Below the pieces are notes generated by a model, which did no database searches, had not been told where the DNA came from, and saw nothing but the letters and a program-made list of their open reading frames with translations. This document shows, piece by piece, positions 1 through 13,605 of a stretch of 13,605 nucleotides of DNA. A program made the position numbers and the translations under genes. The DNA comes from a virus: the UHGV virus genome UHGV-0206243. One strand, given 5' to 3'. Positions within the stretch are counted from its first letter, which is position 1. Each line of letters opens with the position of its first letter.

Positions 1-63
1 AATCGGTGGAGCTGCATGACAAAGTCATCGGGCATTATCTGAACATAAAACACTATCAATAAG

Positions 64-1449
64 TTGGAGTCATTACCTGATACTCTGAGAAGAGAAACTT
101 TAGAATCATTTGCTATGATTATGCGATTCACTATACAGACAGTAAAAAATAATGATGAGTTGGTCGCGAAGGCCAATAATTTGATAAATGAATCTTTGAA
201 TGCTATTGTTAATTTTGATGAGTTTGAGGAGGCTAAATTAAATATTATTGCTGATAAATTGTGCCAGTTGATTATGCTTTTTAGAGATGCTGGCAATAAT
301 ATTATGTTTAGCCGGGCGACCTCAGAAAACTTACGCAGATTTATATATGAATGCCCATTGAAGAGAATCAAAGATTGCCTAACTAAAGTTGTTTCTATTT
401 CAGGAAATAAATTGTCTGCATCTAAAATAAGTTATGACTTCAGATATGATAAAAATAAAGGTGTGGTAAAGGTTTCGAGATTTGTTCTTCTAAATAAGAA
501 TGATGAAAGAATAGTTGAGCTGTTACCCAAAAAGAATAATGTCGTTGTATTGTCGGATGTTATCCCTCAAGAAGTATTTAGAGGATGTAAGTCTGATATC
601 TTAGAAATCATGAATCCTTATTCTTTGGGGCTATTCCCTGTCAATGAAGGACGTGGTTTTTATGTTTTTTTTGGAAATTCCTACAACCCTGTTGTTAACT
701 TTTTGTCACATGTTGTTTCTCTGGGAGTATTAATGCTTTCAAAAATGTTTGATGGCGAAAATGTTAATCATGTCAGCCCGTTGAGGGCATTTCCTCAGCG
801 TTATTATTTATTAGATAAAACAGTCAATCATGCTCAGTTAAATTCTGCTGATGGCTCTGAGTTGGCGGAGATTCTGAAGAAAAATACAAAAATAACAGAA
901 AACATAAACCTTCTTCTCGCTGAATTTAACTTAGCGGTTGATATAGTTAGAGTTAATGACATAATTCATAAGATAGTTATAAACCAAGATGCTGTTAATT
1001 TAGAATTGACAGATGTAGGGTTTGGAATATCACAAGTGTTGCCTGTCTTGGTTCAAGCTTATTTGTCACCAAAGGGCTCGATTACAATAATAGAACAACC
1101 AGAAATACATTTGCATCCTAAAATGCAGGCATGGTTAACTGACGCATTAATTAAAATATCTATGCAAGAAAAGAAAATTTTTATTATTGAAACACATAGT
1201 GATGCATTAGTTAGACGGATTAGATTAAGAATTGTTGATGAATCAAGCGAACTTACTGAGGACCATGTGGCAATCTATCATCTTGAGCGAGATGAAGAGG
1301 GAACATCAACCTTACTAAATAGAGTGGCTGTGAATTCTGATGGAGATATCACATGGCCAAATGAGTTTATGGATGTTGAGATTCAGGATACAATTAGAAT
1401 ACAGGAATTAAAAATACAAAAAATAATGAACTCAAAGGGAGTTCATTGA
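64..1449 (+). CDS. Hypothetical ABC/SMC-type ATPase C-terminal-module protein (signature-like, Walker-B-like and H-loop motifs; no Walker A); candidate defence component
   Basis: 461-codon ORF in about one-third-GC DNA. C-terminus reads GFGISQVLPVL...ITIIEQPEIHLHP...IFIIETHSDAL, resembling the signature/Walker B/H-loop end of AAA_21/DUF3696-type ATPases. No GxxxxGK[ST] anywhere. Start is uncertain: TTG at 64 follows an in-frame stop at 46-48, first ATG is at 112, and no clear Shine-Dalgarno precedes either. Confidence 0.6.
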   Translation: MESLPDTLRRETLESFAMIMRFTIQTVKNNDELVAKANNLINESLNAIVNFDEFEEAKLNIIADKLCQLIMLFRDAGNNIMFSRATSENLRRFIYECPLKRIKDCLTKVVSISGNKLSASKISYDFRYDKNKGVVKVSRFVLLNKNDERIVELLPKKNNVVVLSDVIPQEVFRGCKSDILEIMNPYSLGLFPVNEGRGFYVFFGNSYNPVVNFLSHVVSLGVLMLSKMFDGENVNHVSPLRAFPQRYYLLDKTVNHAQLNSADGSELAEILKKNTKITENINLLLAEFNLAVDIVRVNDIIHKIVINQDAVNLELTDVGFGISQVLPVLVQAYLSPKGSITIIEQPEIHLHPKMQAWLTDALIKISMQEKKIFIIETHSDALVRRIRLRIVDESSELTEDHVAIYHLERDEEGTSTLLNRVAVNSDGDITWPNEFMDVEIQDTIRIQELKIQKIMNSKGVH

Positions 1450-1450
1450 T

Positions 1451-2452
1451 ATGCTTTGTGCTGTTTGTTTGTGTCCTGAATTTGTTGCTGCTAATATTTC
1501 TGATGTTAAAGTTTTTAGCGGTTTTTTTATTGAAACCATTGTTAATGGTGAAAATGAGTTGATTCTTGATGCTGATGGAAAAATTCGCTTAGGTTATTTA
1601 AAGTCTTGCGGAAACAACAAGGATTCTTTTTTGTTTTTTAAGAAGTGGGAGTCTGAGTTATCTAAAGCTCCTTCAGGCAAGATATTGCGTACACCAGTGC
1701 CGAATAGTTCTGAGGATATTAAGGATATAGTTGTTTGTGCAGTTGCTAATGCAGCCACTACTTTTGATAAGCATATCGTAGTGTTAGATAATAATAGTTA
1801 CTCTGGATATATTGATGAATTAATCAGGCAAAGGATTAATTTGTTAAATCTTAATAGTATAAGCTTAATATCAAAGGATGGTCGAGTGCAGCGTCCTTTG
1901 AATTTTATAAAGTTTGATAGTGATTTATCTTGGGTGCTTCAAAGATTGGGGCGTCGCTCTGCTAAAGGATATGGTGAAGATGATTTTAATGATTTTATAC
2001 GGGATATGTTATTAGCTAAGAATTATGAGGTAAAAGATCAAACTAGAGAGGGAGAGTCTCAATCTGGTAAAAGTGCGGGTGAATTAGATCTTGTTATTGA
2101 AGATAAAGGAAATCTATTTGCTATAATAGAAGCATTGATTTTAAAATCTCTAGATCAAGCTAACATATTAAAGCATTATTCAAAGCTAATTGGTAACTAT
2201 AATCCTATTAATGTTAAACGCTTGTTTTTAATTGCTTATTATACTGGTGCAAAATTTGATGCTTGGTGTGAGAGATACATTGATTATCTAAAAGAGATTA
2301 CTCCGGTAGATATTGGTGTAGAATCTCATGAGATAGTTGGGATTAAAGAAGTGGAGACTCCATATATAGGTTTGAGAAAAATTGAACATCATTTTAGATA
2401 TGCGGGAGAACATTATTTTTGTGTTCATTATGCAGTCAAGATGGCTCGGTGA
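1451..2452 (+). CDS. Hypothetical protein, putative effector partner (possible PD-(D/E)xK-like nuclease core)
   Basis: 333-codon ORF. Shine-Dalgarno AAAGGGAG sits about 10 nt upstream, inside the 3' end of the preceding gene, and the ATG is 2 nt after that gene's TGA. Segment GELDLVIEDKGNLFAIIEALILK resembles the beta-strand core of PD-(D/E)xK nucleases but is not canonical. AT-rich like its neighbour. Confidence 0.6.
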   Translation: MLCAVCLCPEFVAANISDVKVFSGFFIETIVNGENELILDADGKIRLGYLKSCGNNKDSFLFFKKWESELSKAPSGKILRTPVPNSSEDIKDIVVCAVANAATTFDKHIVVLDNNSYSGYIDELIRQRINLLNLNSISLISKDGRVQRPLNFIKFDSDLSWVLQRLGRRSAKGYGEDDFNDFIRDMLLAKNYEVKDQTREGESQSGKSAGELDLVIEDKGNLFAIIEALILKSLDQANILKHYSKLIGNYNPINVKRLFLIAYYTGAKFDAWCERYIDYLKEITPVDIGVESHEIVGIKEVETPYIGLRKIEHHFRYAGEHYFCVHYAVKMAR

Positions 2453-2589: not shown

Positions 2590-2608
2590 GGCGAGGCGGG
2601 GAAAGCAC
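2590..2608. other. cos: P2-type cos cohesive-end sequence
   Basis: GGCGAGGCGGGGAAAGCAC matches the 19-nt P2 cohesive end as I recall it, and it lies just beyond the 3' end of Q as in P2. Confidence 0.8.
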
Positions 2609-2750
2609 TGCGCGCTGGCGGTGGTGCTGATTTTATTTTTTCAGCGTCTGAGCGCGTCGTGATGGCGTTTGGATTGTTCGCCGGGGCGTTGGTGTGTATG
2701 CGGGCTGTTTTGTGCGGTGGTGAGCGTGTGAGGGCGTGATGACGGGGTGT

Positions 2751-2773
2751 AAAAAAGCCGCCCGCAGGCGGCG
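2751..2773 (-). terminator. Intrinsic terminator downstream of portal gene Q
   Basis: On the minus strand: GCCGCC-TGCG-GGCGGC hairpin followed by TTTTTT, a few nt after the Q stop at 2778-2780. Confidence 0.7.
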
Positions 2774-2777
2774 ATGT

Positions 2778-3812
2778 TCAGCCGTTGTCAGTGTCCAGTG
2801 AGTAGTTTTTAAAGCGGATGACCTCCTGACCGAGCCAGCCGTTTATCTCGCGGATCCTGTCCTGTAACGGGATAAGCTCATTGCGGACAAAGACCTTTGC
2901 CACTTTCTCAATATCACCCAGCGACCCGACGTTCTCCGGCTTGCCGCCCATCAACTGAAAAGGGATGCGGTGCGCGTCCAGCAGGTCTGCGGCGCTGGCT
3001 TTTTTGATATTAAAAAAATCGTCCTTCGTTGCCACTTCACTGAGCGGGATAATTTTAATACCGTCGGCTTTTCCCTGTGGGGCGTAGAGAAACAGGTTTT
3101 TAAAGTTGTTGCGGCCTTTCGACTTCACCATGTTTTCGCGAAGCATTTCGATATCGTTGCGATCCTGCACGGCATCGGTGACGTACATGATATATCCGGC
3201 ATGAGCGCCGTTTTCGTAATACTTGCGGCGGAACAGCGTGGCCGACTCATTCAGCCAGGCAGAGTTAAGGGCGCTGAGATATTCCGGCAGGCCGTACAGC
3301 TCCTGATTGATATCCGGCTCCAGCAGGTGAAACACGGAGCCGGGCGCGAAAGGTGTCGGCTCGTTGAAGGATGGCACCCACCAGTAAACATCCTCCTCCA
3401 CGCCACGGCGGGTATATTTTGCCGGTGAGGTTTCCAGTCTGATGACCTTACCGGTAGTGCTGTAGCGCTTTTCCAGAAACGCATTACCGAACACCAGAAA
3501 ATCCAGCACAAAGCGGCTGAAATCCTGCTGGGAAAGCCACGGATGCGGGATAAATGTCGAGGCCAGAATATTACGTTTGACGTAAATCGGTGAGCTGTGA
3601 TGCACGGCAGCACGCAGGCTTTTTGCCAGACCGGTAAAGCTGACCGGTGGCTCATACCATCTGCCGTTACTGATGCATTCGACGTAATCCAGAATGTCAC
3701 GGCGGTCGAGTACCGGCACCGGCTCACCAAAGGTGAATGCCTCCATTTTCGGGGCGCTGGTGGTCATTGTTTTTGCCGCAGGTTGCGGTGTTTTCCCTTT
3801 TTTCTTGCTCAT
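2778..3812 (-). CDS. Q: Capsid portal protein
   Basis: 344 aa, the length I recall for P2 gpQ. Sequence matches recalled P2 portal; its ATG overlaps the stop of the upstream terminase remnant. Confidence 0.92.
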   Translation of the reverse strand: MSKKKGKTPQPAAKTMTTSAPKMEAFTFGEPVPVLDRRDILDYVECISNGRWYEPPVSFTGLAKSLRAAVHHSSPIYVKRNILASTFIPHPWLSQQDFSRFVLDFLVFGNAFLEKRYSTTGKVIRLETSPAKYTRRGVEEDVYWWVPSFNEPTPFAPGSVFHLLEPDINQELYGLPEYLSALNSAWLNESATLFRRKYYENGAHAGYIMYVTDAVQDRNDIEMLRENMVKSKGRNNFKNLFLYAPQGKADGIKIIPLSEVATKDDFFNIKKASAADLLDAHRIPFQLMGGKPENVGSLGDIEKVAKVFVRNELIPLQDRIREINGWLGQEVIRFKNYSLDTDNG

Positions 3813-4774
3813 CAGTAAAACTCCAGAATGGTGGATGTCAGCGGGGTGCTGATACCGGCGGTGAGTGGCTCATTTAACAGGGCGTGCATGGTCGCCCAGG
3901 CGAGGTCGGCGTGGCTGGCTTCCTCGCTGCGGCTGGCCTCATAGGTGGCGCTGCGTCCGCTGCTGGTCATGGTCTTGCGGATAGCCATAAACGAGCTGGT
4001 GATGTCGGTGGCGCTGACGTCATATTCCAGACAGCCACGGCGGATAACGTCTTTTGCCTTGAGCACCATTGCGGTTTTCATTTCCGGCGTGTAGCGGATA
4101 TCGCGCGCGGCGGGATAGAACGAGCGCACGAGCTGGAACACGCCGACACCGAGGCCGGTGGCATCAATACCGATGTATTCGACGTTGTATTTTTCAGTGA
4201 GTTTGCGGATGGATTCCGCCTGGGTGGCAAAGTCCATGCCTTTCCACTGATGGCGCTCAAGTATTCTGAATTTGCCACCGGCCACCACCGGCGGTGCCAG
4301 CACCACGCATCCGGCGCTGTCGCCACGGTGTGACGGGTCGTAACCAATCCATACCGGGCGGGAGCCGAACGGATTGGTGGCAAACGGCGCGTAGTCTTCC
4401 CATTCTTCCAGCGTGTCGACCATGCAGCGTTGCAGCTCCTCGAACGGGAACACTGACGCCTTGTCGTCAACAAATTCACACATGAACAGGTTTTTAAAAT
4501 CGTCGGCGCTGTTTTCGCGTTTGAGCTGCTCAATGTCGAACAGCGTGCAGCCGCCTTTCAGCGCGTCCTCAATGGTGACAATCTGCCGCCACTGACCGTC
4601 CGCACAGAGAAGCCCACCGGCAAGAGCGTTATGACTGACGTCGATTTCCACGCGTTCGGCGGCGCTGGCGCGTCCCCGGTTGAACAGTTCACCCGACCAG
4701 AACGGGTAGGCGTCGTGCGCCAGCGTGGACGGGGTGGAGAAATAGGTCGAGCGCAGGTGACTCTGTGAGGCCAT
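3812..4774 (-). pseudogene. P: Terminase large subunit, C-terminal (nuclease-domain) remnant; N-terminal ATPase region deleted
   Basis: 320-codon ORF ending directly at the Q start, as in the P2 P-Q operon. Contains nuclease-domain-like segments (IGIDATGLGVGV, DPSHRGDSAGCVV) but no Walker A. Recalled P2 gpP is about 590 aa. The frame is closed by a stop at 4787-4789, right beside the lysB start. Confidence 0.8.
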
Positions 4775-4783
4775 ACCTGAACC

Positions 4784-5209
4784 ATGTCAAAGCTGATGAT
4801 TGTGCTGGTTGTGTTGTTATCACTGGCGGTGGCCGGTCTGTTTCTGGCGAAGCATGAAAACGCCAGCCTGCGCGCCTTGCTGGACAGGGCGAACAACGTC
4901 GCCAGTGAACAGCAGACGACCATCACCATGCTGAAAAATCAGCTTCATGTTGCCATCACCAGGGCAGACAAAAACGAGCTGGCGCAGGTGGCTCTGCGTC
5001 AGGAACTGGAGAACGCCGCGAAGCGTGAAGCACAGCGCGAGAAAACCATCACGAGATTACTCAATGAAAACGAAGATTTTCGCCGCTGGTACGGTGCTGA
5101 CCTGCCTGATGCTGTGCGCCGGTTGCACCAGCGCCCCGCCTGCACTGACGCCAGTGATTGTCGCCAACGCCTGCCCGAAAGTGAGTCTTTGCCCGATGCC
5201 GGGCAGTGA
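4784..5209 (+). CDS. lysB: Rz-like i-spanin LysB
   Basis: 141 aa with an N-terminal hydrophobic segment (MSKLMIVLVVLLSLAVAGLFL), matching recalled P2 LysB. Confidence 0.9.
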   Translation: MSKLMIVLVVLLSLAVAGLFLAKHENASLRALLDRANNVASEQQTTITMLKNQLHVAITRADKNELAQVALRQELENAAKREAQREKTITRLLNENEDFRRWYGADLPDAVRRLHQRPACTDASDCRQRLPESESLPDAGQ

Positions 5210-5354
5210 CCCGGAGACGAACGGCGATTTAAGTGCCGATATCCGGCAGCTTGAGAACGCGCTGGCACGCTGTGCCAGCCAGGTAAAAATGATTAAACAC
5301 TGTCAGGACGAAAACGATGCTCAAACCCGACAGCCTGCGCAGGGCGCTGACTGA
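5064..5354 (+). CDS. lysC: Rz1-like o-spanin lipoprotein LysC
   Basis: 96 codons in the +1 frame, starting inside lysB and running into R. Lipoprotein signal MKTKIFAAGTVLTCLMLCAGC. The track ORF starts upstream at 4947; the start at 5064 is chosen from the signal peptide. Confidence 0.8.
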   Translation: MKTKIFAAGTVLTCLMLCAGCTSAPPALTPVIVANACPKVSLCPMPGSDPETNGDLSADIRQLENALARCASQVKMIKHCQDENDAQTRQPAQGAD

Positions 5355-5784
5355 TGCCGTCACGGTGCTGAAAACCAGTCCAGAGATGCTGCGGATATTC
5401 GTGGATAACGGGAGTATTGCCTCCACACTGGCGACGTCGCTGTCATTCGAAAAGCGTTACACGCTCAATGTGATTGTGACCGACTTTACCGGTGATTTTG
5501 ACCTGCTCATCGTGCCGGTGCTGGCGTGGCTGCGGGAAAATCAGCCCGACATCATGACCACCGACGAAGGCCAGAAAAAGGGCTTCACGTTTTATGCGGA
5601 CATCAACAATGACAGCAGCTTTGATATCAGCATCAGCCTGATGCTGACCGAGCGCACGCTGGTCAGTGAGGTTGACGGCGCGCTGCATGTGAAGAATATC
5701 CCGGAACCACCGCCGCCGGAGCCGGTCACCCGCCCGATGGAGCTTTATATCAATGGTGAACTGGTGAGTAAGTGGGATGAATGA
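5317..5784 (+). CDS. R: Tail completion protein R
   Basis: 155 aa; matches recalled P2 gpR in length and sequence. Confidence 0.9.
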   Translation: MLKPDSLRRALTDAVTVLKTSPEMLRIFVDNGSIASTLATSLSFEKRYTLNVIVTDFTGDFDLLIVPVLAWLRENQPDIMTTDEGQKKGFTFYADINNDSSFDISISLMLTERTLVSEVDGALHVKNIPEPPPPEPVTRPMELYINGELVSKWDE

Positions 5785-6229
5785 GTTTAAGCGTTTTGAA
5801 GACCGGCTGACCGGACTGATTGAGTCGCTGTCACCATCAGGGCGTCGGCGACTGAGTGCCGAACTGGCGAAACGTCTGCGGCAGAGTCAGCAGCATCGTG
5901 TGATGGCACAGAAAGCCCCGGACGGCACCCCCTACGCGCCACGCCAGCAGCAGAGCGCCAGAAAAAAGACCGGTCGCGTTAAGCGAAAAATGTTTGCGAA
6001 ACTTATCACCAGTCGTTTTTTGCATATCCGCGCCAGCCCTGAACAGGCATCAATGGAGTTTTACGGCGGGAAGTCACCGAAAATCGCCAGTGTGCATCAG
6101 TTCGGTCTGTCGGAAGAAACCCGGAAAGACGGTAAGAAAATTGATTATCCGGCGCGTCCTCTGCTCGGCTTTACCGGTGAGGATGTGCAGATGATTGAAG
6201 AGATTATCCTGGCTCACCTCGACCGTTAG
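5777..6229 (+). CDS. S: Tail completion protein S
   Basis: 150 aa; matches recalled P2 gpS; overlaps the R stop. Confidence 0.9.
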   Translation: MNEFKRFEDRLTGLIESLSPSGRRRLSAELAKRLRQSQQHRVMAQKAPDGTPYAPRQQQSARKKTGRVKRKMFAKLITSRFLHIRASPEQASMEFYGGKSPKIASVHQFGLSEETRKDGKKIDYPARPLLGFTGEDVQMIEEIILAHLDR

Positions 6230-6230
6230 T

Positions 6231-6248
6231 TGTGCCATTCCCGACACA
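6231..6248 (+). promoter_or_regulatory. Candidate Ogr-dependent late promoter activator site (TGT-N12-ACA) upstream of V
   Basis: TGTGCCATTCCCGACACA is an exact TGT-N12-ACA dyad in the S-V intergenic gap, the form described for P2 late promoters. Its spacing to the V ATG at 6296 is tighter than I would expect. Confidence 0.45.
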
Positions 6249-6295
6249 TCATCGTTACATTGCCGCCGGTATGACCCGGAGGCATCCTTCCCGTT

Positions 6296-6931
6296 ATGAA
6301 CACTCTCGCAAATATCCAGGAACTCGCGCGCGCACTGCGCAACATGATTCGTACCGGCCTTGTCGTCGAAACCAACCTTAAAGCCGGTCGCTGCCGTGTG
6401 CAGACCGGCGGCATGTGCACCGACTGGCTTCAGTGGCTGACCCATCGCGCCGGACGTTCGCGCACATGGTGGGCACCTTCCGTGGGGGAACAGGTGCTGA
6501 TTCTGGCCGTGGGCGGTGAACTCGACACGGCGTTCGTTCTGCCGGGGATTTATTCCGGCGATAACCCCGCGCCGTCTGCGTCGGCGGATGCCCTGCATAT
6601 CCGTTTCCCTGACGGGGCGGTGATTGAGTATGAACCTGAAACCAGTGCACTGACGGTAAGCGGAATTAAAACGGCCAGCGTGACGGCTTCTGATTCTGTT
6701 ACTGCCACGGTGCCGGTGGTCATGGTGAAAGCGTCAACCCGCGTCACCCTGGACACACCGGAGGTGGTCTGCACCAACAGGCTGATTACCGGCACGCTGG
6801 AAGTACAGAAGGGTGGGACGATGCGCGGCAACATTGAACACACCGGCGGTGAACTCTCATCAAACGGTAAGGTACTGCATACCCATAAACACCCCGGCGA
6901 CAGCGGCGGCACAACCGGGAGTCCTCTATGA
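6296..6931 (+). CDS. V: Baseplate spike/assembly protein V
   Basis: 211 aa; matches recalled P2 gpV. Confidence 0.92.
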   Translation: MNTLANIQELARALRNMIRTGLVVETNLKAGRCRVQTGGMCTDWLQWLTHRAGRSRTWWAPSVGEQVLILAVGGELDTAFVLPGIYSGDNPAPSASADALHIRFPDGAVIEYEPETSALTVSGIKTASVTASDSVTATVPVVMVKASTRVTLDTPEVVCTNRLITGTLEVQKGGTMRGNIEHTGGELSSNGKVLHTHKHPGDSGGTTGSPL

Positions 6932-7275
6932 CAGCGCGTTATCTCGGAATGAATCGCAGTGATGGCCTGACTGTCACTGACCTTGAGCATATCAGCCAGA
7001 GTATCGGCGATATCCTGCGCACACCGGTCGGCTCACGGGTGATGCGTCGTGATTACGGCTCGTTGCTGGCGTCAATGATTGACCAGCCGCAGACTCCGGC
7101 GCTTGAGTTGCAGATTAAGGTCGCCTGTTACATGGCAGTGCTGAAATGGGAACCCCGCGTCACCCTGTCATCCGTCACCACTGAGCGCAGTTTTGACGGG
7201 CGAATGACGGTCACGTTAACCGGCCAGCACAACGACACCGGCCAGCCACTTTCGTTAACCATCCCTGTGAGTTGA
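6928..7275 (+). CDS. W: Baseplate protein W (gp25-like)
   Basis: 115 aa; matches recalled P2 gpW; GGGAG Shine-Dalgarno upstream; ATG overlaps the V stop. Confidence 0.92.
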   Translation: MTARYLGMNRSDGLTVTDLEHISQSIGDILRTPVGSRVMRRDYGSLLASMIDQPQTPALELQIKVACYMAVLKWEPRVTLSSVTTERSFDGRMTVTLTGQHNDTGQPLSLTIPVS

Positions 7276-7279
7276 AACC

Positions 7280-7384
7280 ATGCCGATTATCGACCTGAAC
7301 CAGCTACCCGCACCGGATGTGGTCGAGGAGCTGGACTTTGAAACCATTCTCGCCGAACGCAAGGCGACACTGATTTCCCTTTAA
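7280..7384 (+). pseudogene. J: Baseplate protein J, N-terminal 34-codon stub
   Basis: [34 protein letters not shown] matches the recalled P2 gpJ N-terminus, then hits TAA at 7382-7384 where sheath-gene sequence begins out of frame. Confidence 0.85.
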
Positions 7385-8193
7385 CCGGTGTTAAACCGCG
7401 TATTCTTGGTGTGCCGGGGCTGGATACCAAAGAGGTGGCTGTTGCACTGGCATCAGTCTGTCAGAAGCTGCGCGCTTTCGGGTATATCAGCGCATGGGGC
7501 TGTAAAACCATTTCCGAGGTGAAAGCCTACCGCCAGAATTTCAGCCAGCGTGAGCTGATGGTCATCTGGCCGGATTTCCTCGCATGGGATACAGTCAACA
7601 GTACCACCGCCACCGCGTATGCCACCGCCCGTGCGCTGGGTCTGCGTGCCAAAATCGACCAGGAGCAGGGCTGGCATAAAACGCTGTCCAACGTCGGGGT
7701 AAACGGTGTTACCGGCATCAGCGCGTCCGTATTCTGGGATTTGCAGGAGTCCGGTACCGATGCTGACCTGCTTAACGAGTCTGGCGTCACAACGCTGATT
7801 CGCCGCGACGGTTTCCGATTCTGGGGTAACCGTACCTGCTCCGATGACCCGCTGTTCCTCTTTGAAAACTACACCCGCACCGCGCAGGTGTTGGCCGACA
7901 CGATGGCTGAGGCGCACATGTGGGCGGTGGATAAGCCCATCACCGCAACGCTGATTCGCGACATCGTTGACGGCATCAATGCCAAATTTCGTGAGCTGAA
8001 AACAAACGGCTATATCGTGGATGCGACCTGCTGGTTCAGCGAAGAATCCAACGATGCGGAAACCCTTAAGGCCGGAAAACTGTATATCGACTACGACTAT
8101 ACACCGGTGCCTCCTCTCGAAAACCTGACCCTGCGCCAGCGTATTACCGATAAATACCTGGCAAATCTGGTCACCTCGGTTAACAGCAATTAA
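7384..8193 (+). pseudogene. FI: Tail sheath protein FI, C-terminal portion only
   Basis: Sheath-frame homology ([18 protein letters not shown]... to ...[10 protein letters not shown]) begins at about 7384; the track ORF starts at GTG 7411. About 260-270 codons remain of a recalled ~396-aa protein. No native start or promoter. Confidence 0.85.
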
Positions 8194-8205
8194 GGAGCCT
8201 GACCG

Positions 8206-8724
8206 ATGGCAATGCCGCGCAAACTCAAGTTAATGAACGTCTTTCTGAACGGCTACAGCTATCAGGGCGTTGCAAAGTCCGTCACGCTGCCAAAACTGAC
8301 CCGTAAGCTCGAAAACTATCGCGGTGCGGGGATGAACGGCAGCGCACCGGTAGACCTCGGCCTTGATGATGATGCGCTGTCAATGGAGTGGTCGCTCGGG
8401 GGCTTCCCGGATTCGGTTATCTGGGAGCTTTACGCCGCAACCGGCGTGGATGCCGTGCCGATTCGTTTTGCAGGCTCTTACCAGCGCGACGATACCGGCG
8501 AAACGGTGGCCGTCGAAGTGGTCATGCGTGGACGTCAGAAAGAAATCGACACCGGCGAGGGCAAACAGGGAGAAGACACCGAGTCGAAAATCTCCGTGGT
8601 CTGCACCTATTTCCGGCTGACGATGGACGGTAAGGAGCTGGTCGAAATCGACACCATCAACATGATTGAGAAGGTGAACGGCGTCGACCGGCTGGAGCAA
8701 CACCGCCGCAATATCGGCCTGTGA
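8206..8724 (+). CDS. FII: Tail tube protein FII
   Basis: 172 aa; matches recalled P2 gpFII; AAGGAG Shine-Dalgarno upstream. Confidence 0.92.
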   Translation: MAMPRKLKLMNVFLNGYSYQGVAKSVTLPKLTRKLENYRGAGMNGSAPVDLGLDDDALSMEWSLGGFPDSVIWELYAATGVDAVPIRFAGSYQRDDTGETVAVEVVMRGRQKEIDTGEGKQGEDTESKISVVCTYFRLTMDGKELVEIDTINMIEKVNGVDRLEQHRRNIGL

Positions 8725-8780
8725 TTTTCATCCGGTCAGCCTGGCTGACCGGTTAACACCGATTCAGAAGTGAGAAAACC

Positions 8781-9056
8781 ATGAACAAAGAAAATGTGAT
8801 TACCCTGGACAATCCGGTCAAGCGTGGTGAGCAGGTTATCGAACAGGTCACGCTGATGAAACCCAATGCCGGGACGCTGCGCGGTGTCAGTCTGGCTGCG
8901 GTCGCGAACTCTGAAGTCGATGCACTGATTAAGGTGCTGCCGCGCATGACGGCACCGATGCTGACCGAGCAGGAAGTCGCCGCGCTGGAACTGCCTGACC
9001 TTGTGGCGCTGGCCGGTAAGGTGGTCGGTTTTTTGTCGCCGAACTCGGTGCAGTGA
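8781..9056 (+). CDS. E: Tail assembly chaperone E
   Basis: 91 aa; matches recalled P2 gpE. Confidence 0.9.
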   Translation: MNKENVITLDNPVKRGEQVIEQVTLMKPNAGTLRGVSLAAVANSEVDALIKVLPRMTAPMLTEQEVAALELPDLVALAGKVVGFLSPNSVQ

Positions 9057-9208
9057 CGTTTCCGAAAAATCTCTCGGTCGATGACCTGATGGCAGATGTG
9101 GCTGTGATATTTCACTGGCCGCCATCAGAACTGTATCCCATGAGCCTGACCGAACTCATCACATGGCGCGAAAAGGCGCTCCGGCGAAGCGGAAACACGA
9201 ATGAGTAA
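8781..9208 (+). CDS. E': Tail assembly chaperone E+E' (programmed -1 frameshift product; slip site TTTTTTG at 9029..9035)
   Basis: I translated the -1 frame from the T6G slip site by hand: it is open to TAA at 9206-9208 and ends ...LTELITWREKALRRSGNTNE, about 142 aa in total, overlapping the T start. Confidence 0.8.
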
Positions 9209-11648
9209 CAATGTAAAATTACAGGTATTGCTCAGGGCTGTTGACCAGGCATCCCGCCCGTTTAAATCCATCCGTACAGCGAGCAAGTCGCTGTCGGGGG
9301 ATATCCGGGAAACACAAAAATCACTGCGCGAGCTGAACGGTCAGGCGTCCCGTATTGAGGGATTTCGCAAGACCAGTGCGCAGCTCGCCGTGACTGGTCA
9401 TGCACTTGAAAAGGCTCGGCAGGAAGCCGAAGCCCTTGCCACACAGTTTAAAAACACCGAACGTCCGACCCGTGCTCAGGCGAAAGTGCTGGAGTCCGCG
9501 AAGCGTGCGGCGGAGGACTTACAGGCGAAATATAACCGCCTGACGGATTCCGTTAAACGCCAGCAACGGGAACTGGCCGCTGTGGGAATTAATACCCGCA
9601 ATCTTGCACATGATGAGCAGGGACTGAAAAACCGTATCAGTGAAACCACCGCACAGCTTAACCGTCAGCGCGACGCGCTGGCGCGTGTCAGTGCGCAACA
9701 GGCAAAACTTAACGCAGTCAAACAGCGTTATCAGGCAGGCAAGGAACTGGCCGGAAATATGGCCTCGGTGGGCGCTGCCGGTGTGGGGATTGCGGCGGCG
9801 GGAACGATGGCCGGAGTTAAGCTGCTGATGCCCGGTTATGAGTTTGCGCAGAAAAACTCAGAATTGCAGGCCGTGCTCGGTGTGGCAAAAGATTCCGCCG
9901 AAATGGCCGCGCTACGCAAACAGGCGCGCCAGCTCGGCGACAATACCGCCGCCTCGGCGGATGATGCGGCCGGTGCGCAGATTATTATTGCGAAAGCCGG
10001 TGGGGATGTTGATGCCATTCAGGCGGCAACGCCGGTCACGCTGAACATGGCGCTGGCGAACCGCCGCACGATGGAAGAAAACGCCGCCCTGCTGATGGGG
10101 ATGAAATCCGCCTTTCAGCTTTCAAACGATAAGGTCGCTCATATCGGGGATGTTCTCTCCATGACGATGAACAAAACCGCCGCCGATTTTGACGGCATGA
10201 GCGATGCGCTGACCTATGCCGCACCTGTGGCAAAAAATGCCGGTGTCAGCATTGAAGAAACCGCCGCGATGGTCGGGGCGCTGCATGATGCAAAAATCAC
10301 AGGCTCAATGGCGGGGACGGGAAGCCGTGCCGTGTTAAGCCGCCTGCAGGCACCGACGGGAAAAGCATGGGATGCACTCAAAGAGCTTGGAGTGAAAACC
10401 TCAGACAGCAAGGGAAACACCCGGCCAATATTTACCATTCTGAAAGAAATGCAGGCCAGTTTTGAGAAAAACCGGCTCGGTACTGCCCAGCAGGCTGAAT
10501 ACATGAAAACTATTTTCGGGGAGGAGGCCAGCTCAGCCGCCGCCGTGCTGATGACTGCCGCCTCAACCGGAAAGCTGGACAAACTGGCCGCTGCGTTTAA
10601 AGCCTCAGACGGAAAGACCGCAGAGCTGGTAAATATCATGCAGGACAACCTCGGCGGTGACTTTAAGGAGTTTCAGTCCGCTTATGAGGCGGTGGGGACT
10701 GACCTGTTTGACCAGCAGGAAGGCGCACTGCGTAAGCTCACGCAGACGGCCACAAAGTATGTGTTAAAACTCGACGGCTGGATCCAGAAAAACAAATCAC
10801 TGGCGTCAACCATCGGCCTTATTGTCGGTGGTGCACTGGCGCTGACTGGCATCATCGGTGCAATTGGTCTTGTAGCCTGGCCGGTTATCACCGGCATCAA
10901 TGCCATCATCGCGGCAGCAGGCGCAATGGGGGCAGTCTTCACGACGGTTGGCAGTGCTGTTATGACGGCCATCGGGGCGATTAGCTGGCCGGTTGTGGCC
11001 GTGGTGGCCGCCATTGTCGCCGGGGCGTTGCTTATCCGTAAATACTGGGAGCCTGTCAGCGCATTCTTTGGCGGTGTGGTGGAAGGGCTGAAAGCGGCAT
11101 TTGCGCCGGTGGGGGAACTGTTCACGCCACTTAAGCCGGTGTTTGACTGGCTGGGCGAAAAGTTACAGGCCGCGTGGCAGTGGTTTAAAAACCTGATTGC
11201 CCCGGTCAAAGCCACCCAGGACACCCTGAACCGTTGCCGTGACACGGGCGTCATGTTCGGGCAGGCACTGGCTGACGCGCTGATGCTGCCGCTTAATGCG
11301 TTCAACAAACTGCGCGGCGGTATTGACTGGGTACTGGAAAAACTCGGCGTCATCAACAAAGAGTCAGGCACGCTTGACCAGACTGCCGCCAGAACTCATG
11401 CCGCCACGTATGGCACCGGTGGTTATATTCCGGCGACCAGCTCTTATGCTGGCTATCAGGCTTATCAGCCAGTTACGGCACCGGCTGGCCGCTCTTATGT
11501 GGACCAGAGTAAAAACGAATATCACATCAGCCTGACGGGGGGTACTGCGCCGGGGACACAGCTTGACCGCCAGTTACAGGATGCGCTCGAAAAATACGAG
11601 CGGGATAAACGTGCGCGCGCCCGTGCCAGCATGATGCATGACGGTTAA
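9201..11648 (+). CDS. T: Tail tape measure protein T
   Basis: 815 aa; coiled-coil-like N-terminal region and a Gly/Ala-rich hydrophobic C-terminal region; matches recalled P2 gpT. Confidence 0.92.
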   Translation: MSNNVKLQVLLRAVDQASRPFKSIRTASKSLSGDIRETQKSLRELNGQASRIEGFRKTSAQLAVTGHALEKARQEAEALATQFKNTERPTRAQAKVLESAKRAAEDLQAKYNRLTDSVKRQQRELAAVGINTRNLAHDEQGLKNRISETTAQLNRQRDALARVSAQQAKLNAVKQRYQAGKELAGNMASVGAAGVGIAAAGTMAGVKLLMPGYEFAQKNSELQAVLGVAKDSAEMAALRKQARQLGDNTAASADDAAGAQIIIAKAGGDVDAIQAATPVTLNMALANRRTMEENAALLMGMKSAFQLSNDKVAHIGDVLSMTMNKTAADFDGMSDALTYAAPVAKNAGVSIEETAAMVGALHDAKITGSMAGTGSRAVLSRLQAPTGKAWDALKELGVKTSDSKGNTRPIFTILKEMQASFEKNRLGTAQQAEYMKTIFGEEASSAAAVLMTAASTGKLDKLAAAFKASDGKTAELVNIMQDNLGGDFKEFQSAYEAVGTDLFDQQEGALRKLTQTATKYVLKLDGWIQKNKSLASTIGLIVGGALALTGIIGAIGLVAWPVITGINAIIAAAGAMGAVFTTVGSAVMTAIGAISWPVVAVVAAIVAGALLIRKYWEPVSAFFGGVVEGLKAAFAPVGELFTPLKPVFDWLGEKLQAAWQWFKNLIAPVKATQDTLNRCRDTGVMFGQALADALMLPLNAFNKLRGGIDWVLEKLGVINKESGTLDQTAARTHAATYGTGGYIPATSSYAGYQAYQPVTAPAGRSYVDQSKNEYHISLTGGTAPGTQLDRQLQDALEKYERDKRARARASMMHDG

Positions 11649-11662
11649 GGAGGTGACGAAAA

Positions 11663-12142
11663 ATGATGCTCGCGTTAGGTATGTTTGTTTTTATGCGCCA
11701 GACGCTGCCACACCAGACCATGCAGCGTGAATCAGATTATCGCTGGCCGTCAAATTCCCGTATCGGTAAACGGGATGCCTTTCAGTTTCTCGGTGTTGGC
11801 GAGGAAAACATCACGCTGGCCGGTGTGCTTTATCCCGAACTGACCGGCGGCAAGCTGACGATGACCACGCTCAGGCTGATGGCAGAGGAAGGTCGGGCGT
11901 GGCCGTTGCTGGATGGTACCGGCATGATTTACGGCATGTATGTCATCAGTAAGGTGAGTGAAACAGGGAGTATTTTCTTTGCAGACGGCACACCCCGAAA
12001 AATTGATTTTACGCTGTCGCTCACCCGCGTTGATGAATCACTGGCCGCGCTTTATGGCGATATCGGTAAACAGGCGGAATCGCTCATCGGTAAGGCTGGC
12101 AGTATGGCGACTAAATTCACGGGTATGACGGAGGCGGGATAA
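11663..12142 (+). CDS. U: Tail protein U
   Basis: 159 aa; AAGGAGG Shine-Dalgarno upstream; matches recalled P2 gpU. Confidence 0.9.
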   Translation: MMLALGMFVFMRQTLPHQTMQRESDYRWPSNSRIGKRDAFQFLGVGEENITLAGVLYPELTGGKLTMTTLRLMAEEGRAWPLLDGTGMIYGMYVISKVSETGSIFFADGTPRKIDFTLSLTRVDESLAALYGDIGKQAESLIGKAGSMATKFTGMTEAG

Positions 12143-13305
12143 TGCTGGATGCGCTGACATTTGATGCAGGCAGTACGCTGACGCCGGATTACATGCTGAT
12201 GCTCGACAGCAGGGATATTACCGGCAATATCAGCGACCGTCTGATGAGCATGACCCTGACGGATAACCGGGGCTTTGAGGCTGACCAGCTTGATATTGAA
12301 CTGAACGACGCCGACGGGCAGGTCGGGCTACCGATTCGTGGCGCTGTCCTGACGGTGTATATCGGCTGGAAAGGTTTTGCCCTGGTATGCAAAGGGAAAT
12401 TTACCGTTGATGAGGTTGAACACCGGGGCGCGCCGGATGTGGTTACCATCCGCGCCCGGAGTGCAGATTTCCGCGGGACGCTTAATTCCCGCCGGGAAGG
12501 CTCCTGGCATGACACCACGCTCGGCGCGATTGTTGAGGCGATAGCCTCCCGTAACAGGCTGGAAGCCAGTGTCGCTCCGTCACTGGCCGGAATTAAAATT
12601 CCGCATATCGACCAGTCGCAGGAGTCTGATGCGAAATTCCTGACCCGCCTTGCTGAACGCAACGGCGGTGAGGTGTCGGTAAAAATGGGAAAACTGCTGT
12701 TTCTCAAAGCGGGGCAGGGGGTGACGGCCAGCGGTAAAAAAATCCCGCAGATTACCATCACCCGCAGCGACGGCGACCGTCATCATTTTGCGATTGCTGA
12801 CCGTGGAGCTTACACCGGCGTAACGGCAAAGTGGTTACACACCAAAGACCCGAAGCCGCAAAAGCAGAAGGTAAAACTGAAACGCAAAAAGAAAGAGAAA
12901 CACCTGCGCGCACTGGAGCACCCAAAAGCGAAACCGGTCAGGCAGAAGAAAGCGCCAAAAGTACCGGAAGCGCGCGAAGGTGAATATATGGCCGGTGAGG
13001 CTGACAATGTTTTTGCCCTGACCACGGTATATGCCACGAAAGCGCAGGCCATGCGCGCCGCTCAGGCGAAGTGGGATAAACTGCAACGGGGCGTTGCGGA
13101 GTTCTCCATCAGCCTGGCTACCGGTCGGGCAGATATTTACACGGAAACACCGGTTAAAGTGTCAGGCTTTAAGCGCGTCATAGACGAGCAGGACTGGACA
13201 ATCACTAAGGTGACACATTTTCTGAATAATAGCGGCTTCACGACGTCCCTGGAGCTTGAGGTCAGGCTTTCTGATGTGGAGTACGAAACAGAAGATGATG
13301 AGTGA
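12142..13305 (+). CDS. D: Tail protein D
   Basis: 387 aa; GGAGG Shine-Dalgarno upstream; matches recalled P2 gpD, including an internal lysine-rich stretch. Confidence 0.9.
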   Translation: MLDALTFDAGSTLTPDYMLMLDSRDITGNISDRLMSMTLTDNRGFEADQLDIELNDADGQVGLPIRGAVLTVYIGWKGFALVCKGKFTVDEVEHRGAPDVVTIRARSADFRGTLNSRREGSWHDTTLGAIVEAIASRNRLEASVAPSLAGIKIPHIDQSQESDAKFLTRLAERNGGEVSVKMGKLLFLKAGQGVTASGKKIPQITITRSDGDRHHFAIADRGAYTGVTAKWLHTKDPKPQKQKVKLKRKKKEKHLRALEHPKAKPVRQKKAPKVPEAREGEYMAGEADNVFALTTVYATKAQAMRAAQAKWDKLQRGVAEFSISLATGRADIYTETPVKVSGFKRVIDEQDWTITKVTHFLNNSGFTTSLELEVRLSDVEYETEDDE

Positions 13306-13323
13306 TGTTTTTATTTTATCTAT

Positions 13324-13352
13324 TTGTTTTATAAGGATAAATTAACTAAAAT
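13324..13352 (+). promoter_or_regulatory. Candidate sigma70 promoter for ogr
   Basis: TTGTTT, 17-nt spacer, TAAAAT in the AT-rich D-ogr gap; a GAAGAGG Shine-Dalgarno and the ogr ATG follow. Confidence 0.45.
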
Positions 13353-13386
13353 GGCACCATCAACAAAACCGGAAGAGGTGCTCGCG

Positions 13387-13605
13387 ATGTTTCATTGTCC
13401 TTTATGCCAGCATGCCGCACATGCGCGTACAAGCCGCTATATCACTGACACGACAAAAGAGCGTTATCACCAGTGCCAGAACGTGAATTGCAGCGCCACG
13501 TTCATCACTTATGAGTCGGTACAGAGATACATCGTGAAGCCGGGAGAAGTCCACGCCGTGAGGCCGCACCCGTTGCCGTCAGGGCAGCAAATTATGTGGA
13601 TGTAA
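13387..13605 (+). CDS. ogr: Late transcription activator Ogr (zinc-finger)
   Basis: 72 aa from MFHCPLCQHA... to ...QQIMWM with a Cys-x2-Cys...Cys-x4-Cys pattern; matches recalled P2 Ogr. The track ORF's TTG start at 13324 lies in the promoter region and is rejected. Confidence 0.9.
   Translation: MFHCPLCQHAAHARTSRYITDTTKERYHQCQNVNCSATFITYESVQRYIVKPGEVHAVRPHPLPSGQQIMWM

Follow-up and report, generated by a model that had tools for sequence, protein, structure and literature searches.

Genes and features of the locus

The window (the whole stretch of 13,605 nucleotides that was analysed, from virus genome UHGV-0206243) is explained in its entirety, by blastn against phage P2 (NC_001895), as IS1, cargo and P2 homology, with each retained block ~97% identical to P2. 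At its left edge the right end of an IS1 (1-77, plus strand) interrupts the ATPase gene of a two-gene cargo that occupies the old/tin position (78-2553, with the genes at 78-2452, plus strand) and consists of an AAA_15/AAA_21 ATPase without its 5' end and a 333-aa protein. The joined cos region follows (2561-2608; its 19-nt cohesive-end sequence is 2590-2608, plus strand), and then, on the minus strand, Q and the 3' portion of P (2590-4780, equivalent to P2 1-2189). The other deletion junction of this element lies at 4779-4780, where P2 2189 is joined to P2 7917 with GA common to both sides, and leads into lysB, lysC, R and S (4779-6231, P2 7917-9369).

Between S and V there is no orf30 but a 64-bp spacer (6232-6295), with a TGT-N12-ACA dyad (6231-6248, plus strand), the expected Ogr-type late activator site of pV, upstream of V. 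The spacer is equally short in the E308 and PSJ-12 prophages and therefore represents natural variation, not a third deletion. Both V (6296-6931) and W (6928-7275) are intact; they lie on the plus strand 5' of the J stub and form with the beginning of J a block (6296-7388, plus strand) that corresponds to P2 10308-11400. The stub itself (7280-7384, plus strand) comprises 34 codons of the baseplate gene J and a TAA stop made by the junction. The crossover dinucleotide TA (7382-7383), which joins P2 11394-5 to 18031-2, is an instance of the recurrent endpoint that we call J35. Everything beyond it (7382-13605) corresponds to P2 18031-24254: the 3' two-thirds of the sheath gene FI (codons 127-396 and the stop; 7384-8193, plus strand), in a frame that differs from that of J, and FII, E/E', T, U, D and ogr (8206-13605, plus strand), colinear with P2 18855-24254 and with ogr at 13387-13605.

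Colinear late-gene order, a 19-nt cos site and an ogr late activator gene mark the element as a member of the P2 family: it is a P2-type (Peduovirus) prophage carrying two internal deletions. It is also defective, the full morphogenesis and lysis gene set being broken by the absence of O, N, M, L, X, Y, K, lysA, most of J, all of I, H and G and the 5' part of FI, and the junction between J and FI is ordinary prophage decay. The attR of the window lineage departs from that of P2 ahead of the core (TTTTTTGTGACACCATCCCTGTCTTCCCCC...; positions 16284-16345 of contig L003 against P2 24343-24383), so this prophage uses another integrase/att specificity, at a site adjoining fieF.

Motifs of the Ogr type, TGT-N12-ACA, are well established for the late promoters of P2. 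The P2 record NC_001895 annotates the activator site of pV, and after the deletion its dyad would be the sole remaining late promoter for V-W-J'-'FI-FII-E-T-U-D, which may now form one fused operon that is read as a single transcript.

Anatomy of the J-FI junction

J starts at ATG 7280 and its codon 35 is TAA 7382-7384, so that the stub has the 34 codons, and ends at the stop, that the preliminary description assigned to it. The last base that can only be J is T7381 and the first that can only be FI is A7384, leaving TA 7382-7383 common to both (three-way alignment and base-level extension); in P2 coordinates the breakpoint is 11395|18031. In the three-way alignment the window reads CCCTT-TA-ACCGGTGTT, P2 J reads CCCTT-TA-CCCGGAAGA and P2 FI reads GTCGG-TA-ACCGGTGTT. 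CCGG 7385-7388 is present in both parents, which brings the homology to TA[C/A]CCGG, 6 of 7 bases. The preliminary description had placed the joining at a shared CCGG/ACCGG segment; there is indeed homology there, but the crossover is at TA, A7384 being already FI-type. Aligned to P2 J and to P2 FI, the two flanks are homologous to their respective parents, as had been anticipated, and both are ~97% identical to them.

FI of P2 is 17652-18842, and P2 18031 is the second base of its codon 127. Of the 396 FI codons, 126 (32%) are missing and, the two frames being different, the TAA stop is a product of the junction. The absent interval, P2 11396-18032 (6,637 bp), takes with it the rest of J, I, H, G, fun(Z), the activator and start sites of pF and the 5' part of FI. 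This agrees with the losses listed in the preliminary description (the rest of J, I, H, G, the Z/fun locus, the F late promoter and the first third of FI) and, with the window fully accounted for by IS1, cargo and P2 homology, there is no alternative tail-fibre module. What is left of FI has as its longest open frame one of 260 aa that starts at GTG 7411 and matches Phage_sheath_1 from profile position 25 only, plus Phage_sheath_1C; no Shine-Dalgarno sequence is seen ahead of GTG 7411 when the window sequence is read. Because the rest of J, I, H/G, pF and the first 126 codons of FI have been removed, the prophage can no longer build a tail.

There is no IS and no recombinase-type repeat at the junction, and the only IS1 in the window, at 1-77, is 7.3 kb off. 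With 2-7 bases of homology (TA being the exact common sequence), both flanks colinear with one parent and no mobile element, the junction has the features of an illegitimate deletion. It contains no Din-type invertase site, and its resemblance to an att core is partial.

One event, and what followed it

The junction is base-for-base identical in four independent public contigs from different samples, L003 to L006, which were taken from matches to the 260-aa FI fragment. Identity to the window is 100% over 13.5 kb for L003, 100% over 13.1 kb for L005, 99.98% for L006 and 99.93% for L004; on those that reach into the flank, the genes after ogr are fieF, pfkA, sbp, cdh and tpiA, so that the contigs carry the element at the same site. 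The exact FI fragment occurs in 43 blocks of a large assembly collection, and the 34-aa stub on 91 contigs, with six single-substitution variants, which implies that the scar has persisted and diverged. A junction-spanning query found its two halves in complete E. coli genomes (1,678 of 5,426), in no case joined to each other, a 28-mer across the junction had no match in GTDB species representatives or in IMG/VR, and the 4779-4780 junction was likewise in none of the complete E. coli genomes. The absence from complete genomes might raise the suspicion of an assembly error or chimera, but the four contigs with the same junction come from different assemblers as well as samples, two of them are 100% identical over 13 kb and the stub protein is on 91 contigs; the likelihood of an artefact is vanishingly small. 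The exact junction arose once and has since been inherited, with slow divergence, in a rare E. coli lineage that lies outside the complete genomes.

The contigs also allow events to be ordered. L004 has the J-FI junction, yet its P2 2429-9369 is uninterrupted, with O, N, M, L, X, Y, K and lysA kept; the 4779-4780 deletion, which removes these eight genes and the 5' part of P, is absent from it. L003 has both deletions and a whole cargo ATPase (555 aa), whereas in the window IS1 additionally cuts the ATPase gene ~99 codons in. Since L004 combines the J-FI scar with head and lysis genes and L003 combines both deletions with a whole ATPase, the order that these sequences show is J-FI deletion, then P-lysA deletion, then IS1. 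The J-FI junction, which had been called the second deletion, is accordingly second along the window but not second in time. Two observations on the P-lysA deletion may be added: its right end falls on one of P2's better att-core-like sites (AACCATGTCAAGGCTGATGATT), and in another prophage, L013, an independent P-side endpoint (P2 2214) lies 25 bp from that of the window.

IS1 is the youngest change in the window copy, because the otherwise identical L003 has the ATPase gene whole. The cargo at the old/tin position, described earlier as kept, is present, then, but not intact. It comprises an ABC-type ATPase of 555 aa (whole in L003, 2372-5042), whose best PADLOC matches are NsnB, HEC-03B, PDC-M55A and AriA, and the 333-aa protein, which falls in no Pfam or PADLOC family. 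The same pair, at 99.6-99.9% identity, is carried by P2-type prophages at pflB-pflA (E308, JX21CE8, N61 and PSJ-12), and it is probably an uncharacterised defence pair. The PSJ-12 prophage (NZ_AP027622.1, 1259392-1283364) has a near-complete J that abuts E' (P2 12122|19616) and an inversion that splits its head and early regions; its different junction indicates that loss of the fibre/sheath region is recurrent even where the junctions differ.

A recurrent endpoint in gene J

A survey of related genomes had been proposed as the way of telling a clonal junction from a recurrent one. Its outcome is divided: the exact junction is clonal and its J-side endpoint is recurrent. The cluster formed by the stub at 90% identity also contains stubs with different tails, all of which leave J just after Tyr35, and a scan of IMG/VR with a window-derived pattern that included a discriminating base yielded two further junctions at J35. 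Searching at the protein level with residues 1-60 of J gave 109 short proteins. Once frameshifts, adapter artefacts and proteins truncated at contig ends had been excluded, there were ~32 distinct non-frameshift J N-terminal stub types that break in codons 27-56, 20 of them at codon 34/35 (binomial 3e-16); on a conservative count the figure is 15 of 27 (binomial 2e-11). About half of the hotspot count comes from protein tails and not from DNA.

The frameshifted J stubs (P0113, P0116, P0133, P0135, P0140, P0141 and P0143, at J codons 32-36) begin in the run ATTTCCCTTTACCCGGAAG and could be homopolymer sequencing errors or real slippage; stubs starting in that run were left out of the hotspot count.

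Besides that of the window, eleven junctions at J35 have been verified in DNA, ten of them deletions with different partners and one with J35 as its right end, and all their J-side ends lie inside CCCTT|T|A|C|C, a span of ~5-6 bases. J35 is joined within FI to codon 161 through a shared TA (L011) and to codon 140 through TACC (L015), to FII through TTA (L016), to ogr through CCTTTA (L017), to codon 291 of J itself through TACC (L013), to an H variant (L018), to I through ACC (L019) and to D through TA (L023); in L020 only the J side of the breakpoint is placed, and in the APEC O78 genome (NC_020163) a V|J deletion, with TAC shared, has J35 as its right end. The stub protein P0032, with the tail YGR*, was verified in DNA as J35|D. 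The prophages that use J35 are 96-98.7% identical to the window element, and are on that account separate lineages; they occupy other chromosomal sites, such as yegQ, and have two to five further internal deletions each. In complete genomes a J35-centred 200-nt query gave 7 partial-only records against 2 for a control query at J codon 135, a contrast in the same direction, though a small one. The J-side endpoint is not random: it recurs. The literature searched contains no account of a hotspot in J, nor of endpoints that recur among P2 remnants.

L016 (GCA_000351965.1; KB733421.1, 1419327-1429500) is a scrambled P2 remnant with a tandem duplication of FII-E (P2 19066-19600 present twice) and a fragment of L on both sides, adjoining its J35|FII junction.

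Other reused endpoints and their sequence context

As a control, the same stub analysis was applied to the first 75 residues of the tail gene R. Of the ~17 junction types obtained, 4-5 are at GTGGA[TA]ACGGG (codon 30, referred to as R30; p ~1e-3), a weaker concentration than that at J35; one R30 junction, in which R30 is joined to ogr, was checked in DNA (L024). Codon 57 of R (CTTTACCGG), predicted from the J35 sequence, was not clearly hot in this control. Partner sites are used more than once as well: CCTTTA|TGCC in ogr is a partner of J35, J45 and R30, and GGTTAC|ACACC in D is a partner of J35 and R30. P2 10669/70, 6480/1 and 9166-70 each figure in two independent junctions. By locus, 10669/10670 is used in L013 and L016, 6480/6481 in L013 and L021, 9166-9170 in L019 and P0157, and 24048-24053 in L017, L024 and P0087. 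Endpoint reuse is not confined to J35, there being several sites with two or three independent deletions that have differing partners.

The hot sites have a common look, that of a 3-5-base A/T island containing TA and flanked by G/C runs; at J35 the short island is TTTA, clamped by G/C runs. As a general rule of crossover, TA does not hold: it fits J35, J45 and R30, but of 18 further junctions in these prophages only ~2 use it. GG(N)TA stands upstream of the partner TA in 8 of 10 cases against a background of 15% (p ~7e-6), a regularity that was noticed after the fact.

How the deletion may have arisen

The J-FI junction very probably goes back to one illegitimate, homology-poor deletion that an integrated P2-type prophage underwent and whose scar was then inherited vertically; its endpoint at J35 is non-random. 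What is observed is how the junction is built, that it arose once, in which order the changes came and that the endpoint recurs; the manner of joining and the reason for the fragility of J35 are inferred. We favour microhomology-mediated joining, or template switching, at a TA site that would be fragile and is clamped by G/C. While the prophage was integrated, its DNA would have broken, or a strand would have switched, at the TA of J codon 35; a 3' end reaching into TACCCGG could then have paired with TAACCGG in FI codon 127, an imperfect 7-base match, and the C/A mismatch would have been resolved toward the FI template base. Removal of the mismatch in favour of the template is proposed as the reason why base 7384 is FI-type. 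The deletion took the rest of J, I, H/G, the cargo at the fun(Z) position, pF and the first 126 codons of FI. Its scar was then passed on by vertical descent at the ogr-fieF site of one E. coli lineage, with head and lysis genes (4779-4780) lost afterwards and IS1 gained in the cargo gene last.

Several local features that might mark J35 for breakage were considered and set aside. A 9-bp bulged stem, CTGATTTCC[CTTTACCC]GGAaGATCAG, places J35 in its 8-nt loop, but the stability of this hairpin is no better than that of shuffled sequence (z -0.5 to -0.9) and the other hot sites have no stem, which leaves it as a weak contributor only. J35 has no similarity to the gpA ori nick site, GCGCCTCG|GAGTCC, and on reading its flanks no Chi sequence (GCTGGTGG) is found. 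CCGG adjoins several endpoints, as it might if they were scars of restriction at CCGG/CCNGG, but many partners lack CCGG and the FI127 side retains bases that a C|CGG cut would remove.

The most substantial competitor of microhomology-mediated joining or template switching at J35 makes a tyrosine integrase the source of the break, which would start at J35 as a pseudo core site and leave an end that was then joined through a few matching bases. The P2 int gene is co-transcribed with the repressor gene in lysogens. At yegQ/yegR, P2 has the 18-nt repeat GCCCGTGTAAGGGAGATT on either side, and the bottom strand of J35, CCGGGTAAAGGGAAAT, matches this repeat at 13 of 16 positions with one gap; R30 reads CGTGGATAACGGGAG, and at J35 and R30 alike the crossover TA falls opposite that of TAAGGGAG. 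The J-side breakpoints fall within ~6 bases (CCCTT|T|A|C|C), which is the width of an overlap region, and 10 of the 57 P2 sites scoring >=6 against the core coincide with catalogued endpoints where ~2.8 would be expected. The resemblance was found, however, after several other ideas had been tried, and J35 ranks only ~22nd-35th among the core-like sites in P2. Of its pseudo-att arms one is good (ATTTCCC|TT against ATCTCCC|TT), but a full match requires a gap, and gaps would disturb the spacing of the two cleavages. At least three integrase/att types are represented among the users of J35: the P2 type (L017, L023), the E308 type (L013) and that of the window lineage, with its different attR. 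Partner sites are core-like on one side at best, and the overlap of sites could stem, with no causal link, from a composition that they have in common, TA islands flanked by G/C runs. We consider such an origin of the break unlikely, if deserving of attention, and hold the same low expectation of its general form, that P2-type prophages break at a few defined att-core-like sites (J35, R30, CCTTTA|TGCC in ogr, V 10669 and others) cut by their own integrase. Were it true, the integration machinery would be a built-in cause of prophage grounding and the window junction one of its products.

The remaining proposals are more distant. As described for the IS-excision enhancer IEE and IS629 (PMC9943667), deletions have one fixed end, variable partners and microhomology, and leave no IS behind. 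The J35 pattern matches that description, and the window lineage carries IS1 elsewhere, so that a former IS at J35, removed with flanking DNA by an activity of that type, might be imagined. But there is no IS or IS footprint at J35 in any of the 12 DNA-verified loci (the window and the eleven others), an interruption of any kind near J35 occurs in only 7 of 1,509 complete-genome records, and the reuse of partner sites (ogr with J35, J45 and R30; D with J35 and R30) is unpredicted by a one-ended IS model; the proposal is improbable. An IS-mediated adjacent deletion was rejected, since no IS end abuts the junction. Still less is to be expected of deletion through quasi-sites by a tail-fibre invertase of the Din family (Cin/Pin/Gin-like). 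Relatives such as the E308 prophage do have an invertase gene beside FI, within the deleted interval, and a 2-base crossover is typical of serine recombinases, but the E308 crossover sites, TTCTCCAAAACC-AA-GGT... and ...AAACG-TT-GGTTT, have AA/TT centres, and J35 (CCCTT-TA-CCCGG) and FI127, lacking AAACC/GGTTT arms, do not conform to the 26-bp AAACC-NN-GGTTT site. That the element is no decaying prophage but a domesticated tail-like bacteriocin (tailocin) is a thought prompted by its loss of head genes and its retention of many tail genes, ogr and a late promoter; it is refuted by the gene content of an element whose sheath lacks 126 N-terminal codons and a promoter and ribosome site of its own, and in which J, I, H, G, holin and endolysin are absent, so that the gene set of an R-type tailocin is not there.

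Significance and relation to known systems

The junction records the disarming of a P2-type prophage in one E. coli lineage: tail, then head and lysis, then an IS in the cargo. As a deletion the J-FI junction is itself ordinary, and its added value is the recurrent breakpoint. At least 12 independent DNA-verified rearrangements, and ~20 when protein-level stubs are included, end in the same five bases of J. If that recurrence holds in a full census, decay of P2-family prophages is partly sequence-directed, and its cause (DNA structure, a nuclease or a phage integrase) would then be testable with a 20-30 bp substrate in a tractable phage.

Set against P2 itself (NC_001895), the element of the window is alike in gene order and ~97% identical at the nucleotide level over cos, Q, P', lysB-S, V, W, J' and 'FI-ogr. 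It differs in its deletions of P2 2190-7916 and 11396-18032 and in having no orf30, another cargo at the old/tin position, another attR and another chromosomal site.

One-fixed-end deletion hotspots reportedly were described by Michel and Ehrlich in 1986 at the replication-origin nick sites of M13 and pC194. The likeness to J35 is that an endpoint recurs at a defined nucleotide while its varied partners share few bases with it; the difference is that the fixed end in M13 and pC194 is a known Rep nick site and J35 does not resemble the nick site of P2 gpA. Vaccinia topoisomerase, according to what Shuman is said to have found in 1991, acts at CCCTT. J35 contains CCCTT, part of it is reminiscent of one arm of the P2 att core, and in both respects it is like the secondary sites of tyrosine integrases and type IB topoisomerases. 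The breakpoints at J35 fall within the 6 bases that follow, and the integrases of the prophages that use it differ.

E. coli K-12 has a P2 remnant with ogrK and a D fragment beside yegQ/yegR. The window element, at ~20 kb, is far less reduced than the cryptic remnants of E. coli (~1-3 kb) and is at another site. It is like them in being a P2-type prophage that has been reduced by internal deletions while integrated, and two of the remnants, L017 and L023, have the same J35 endpoint.
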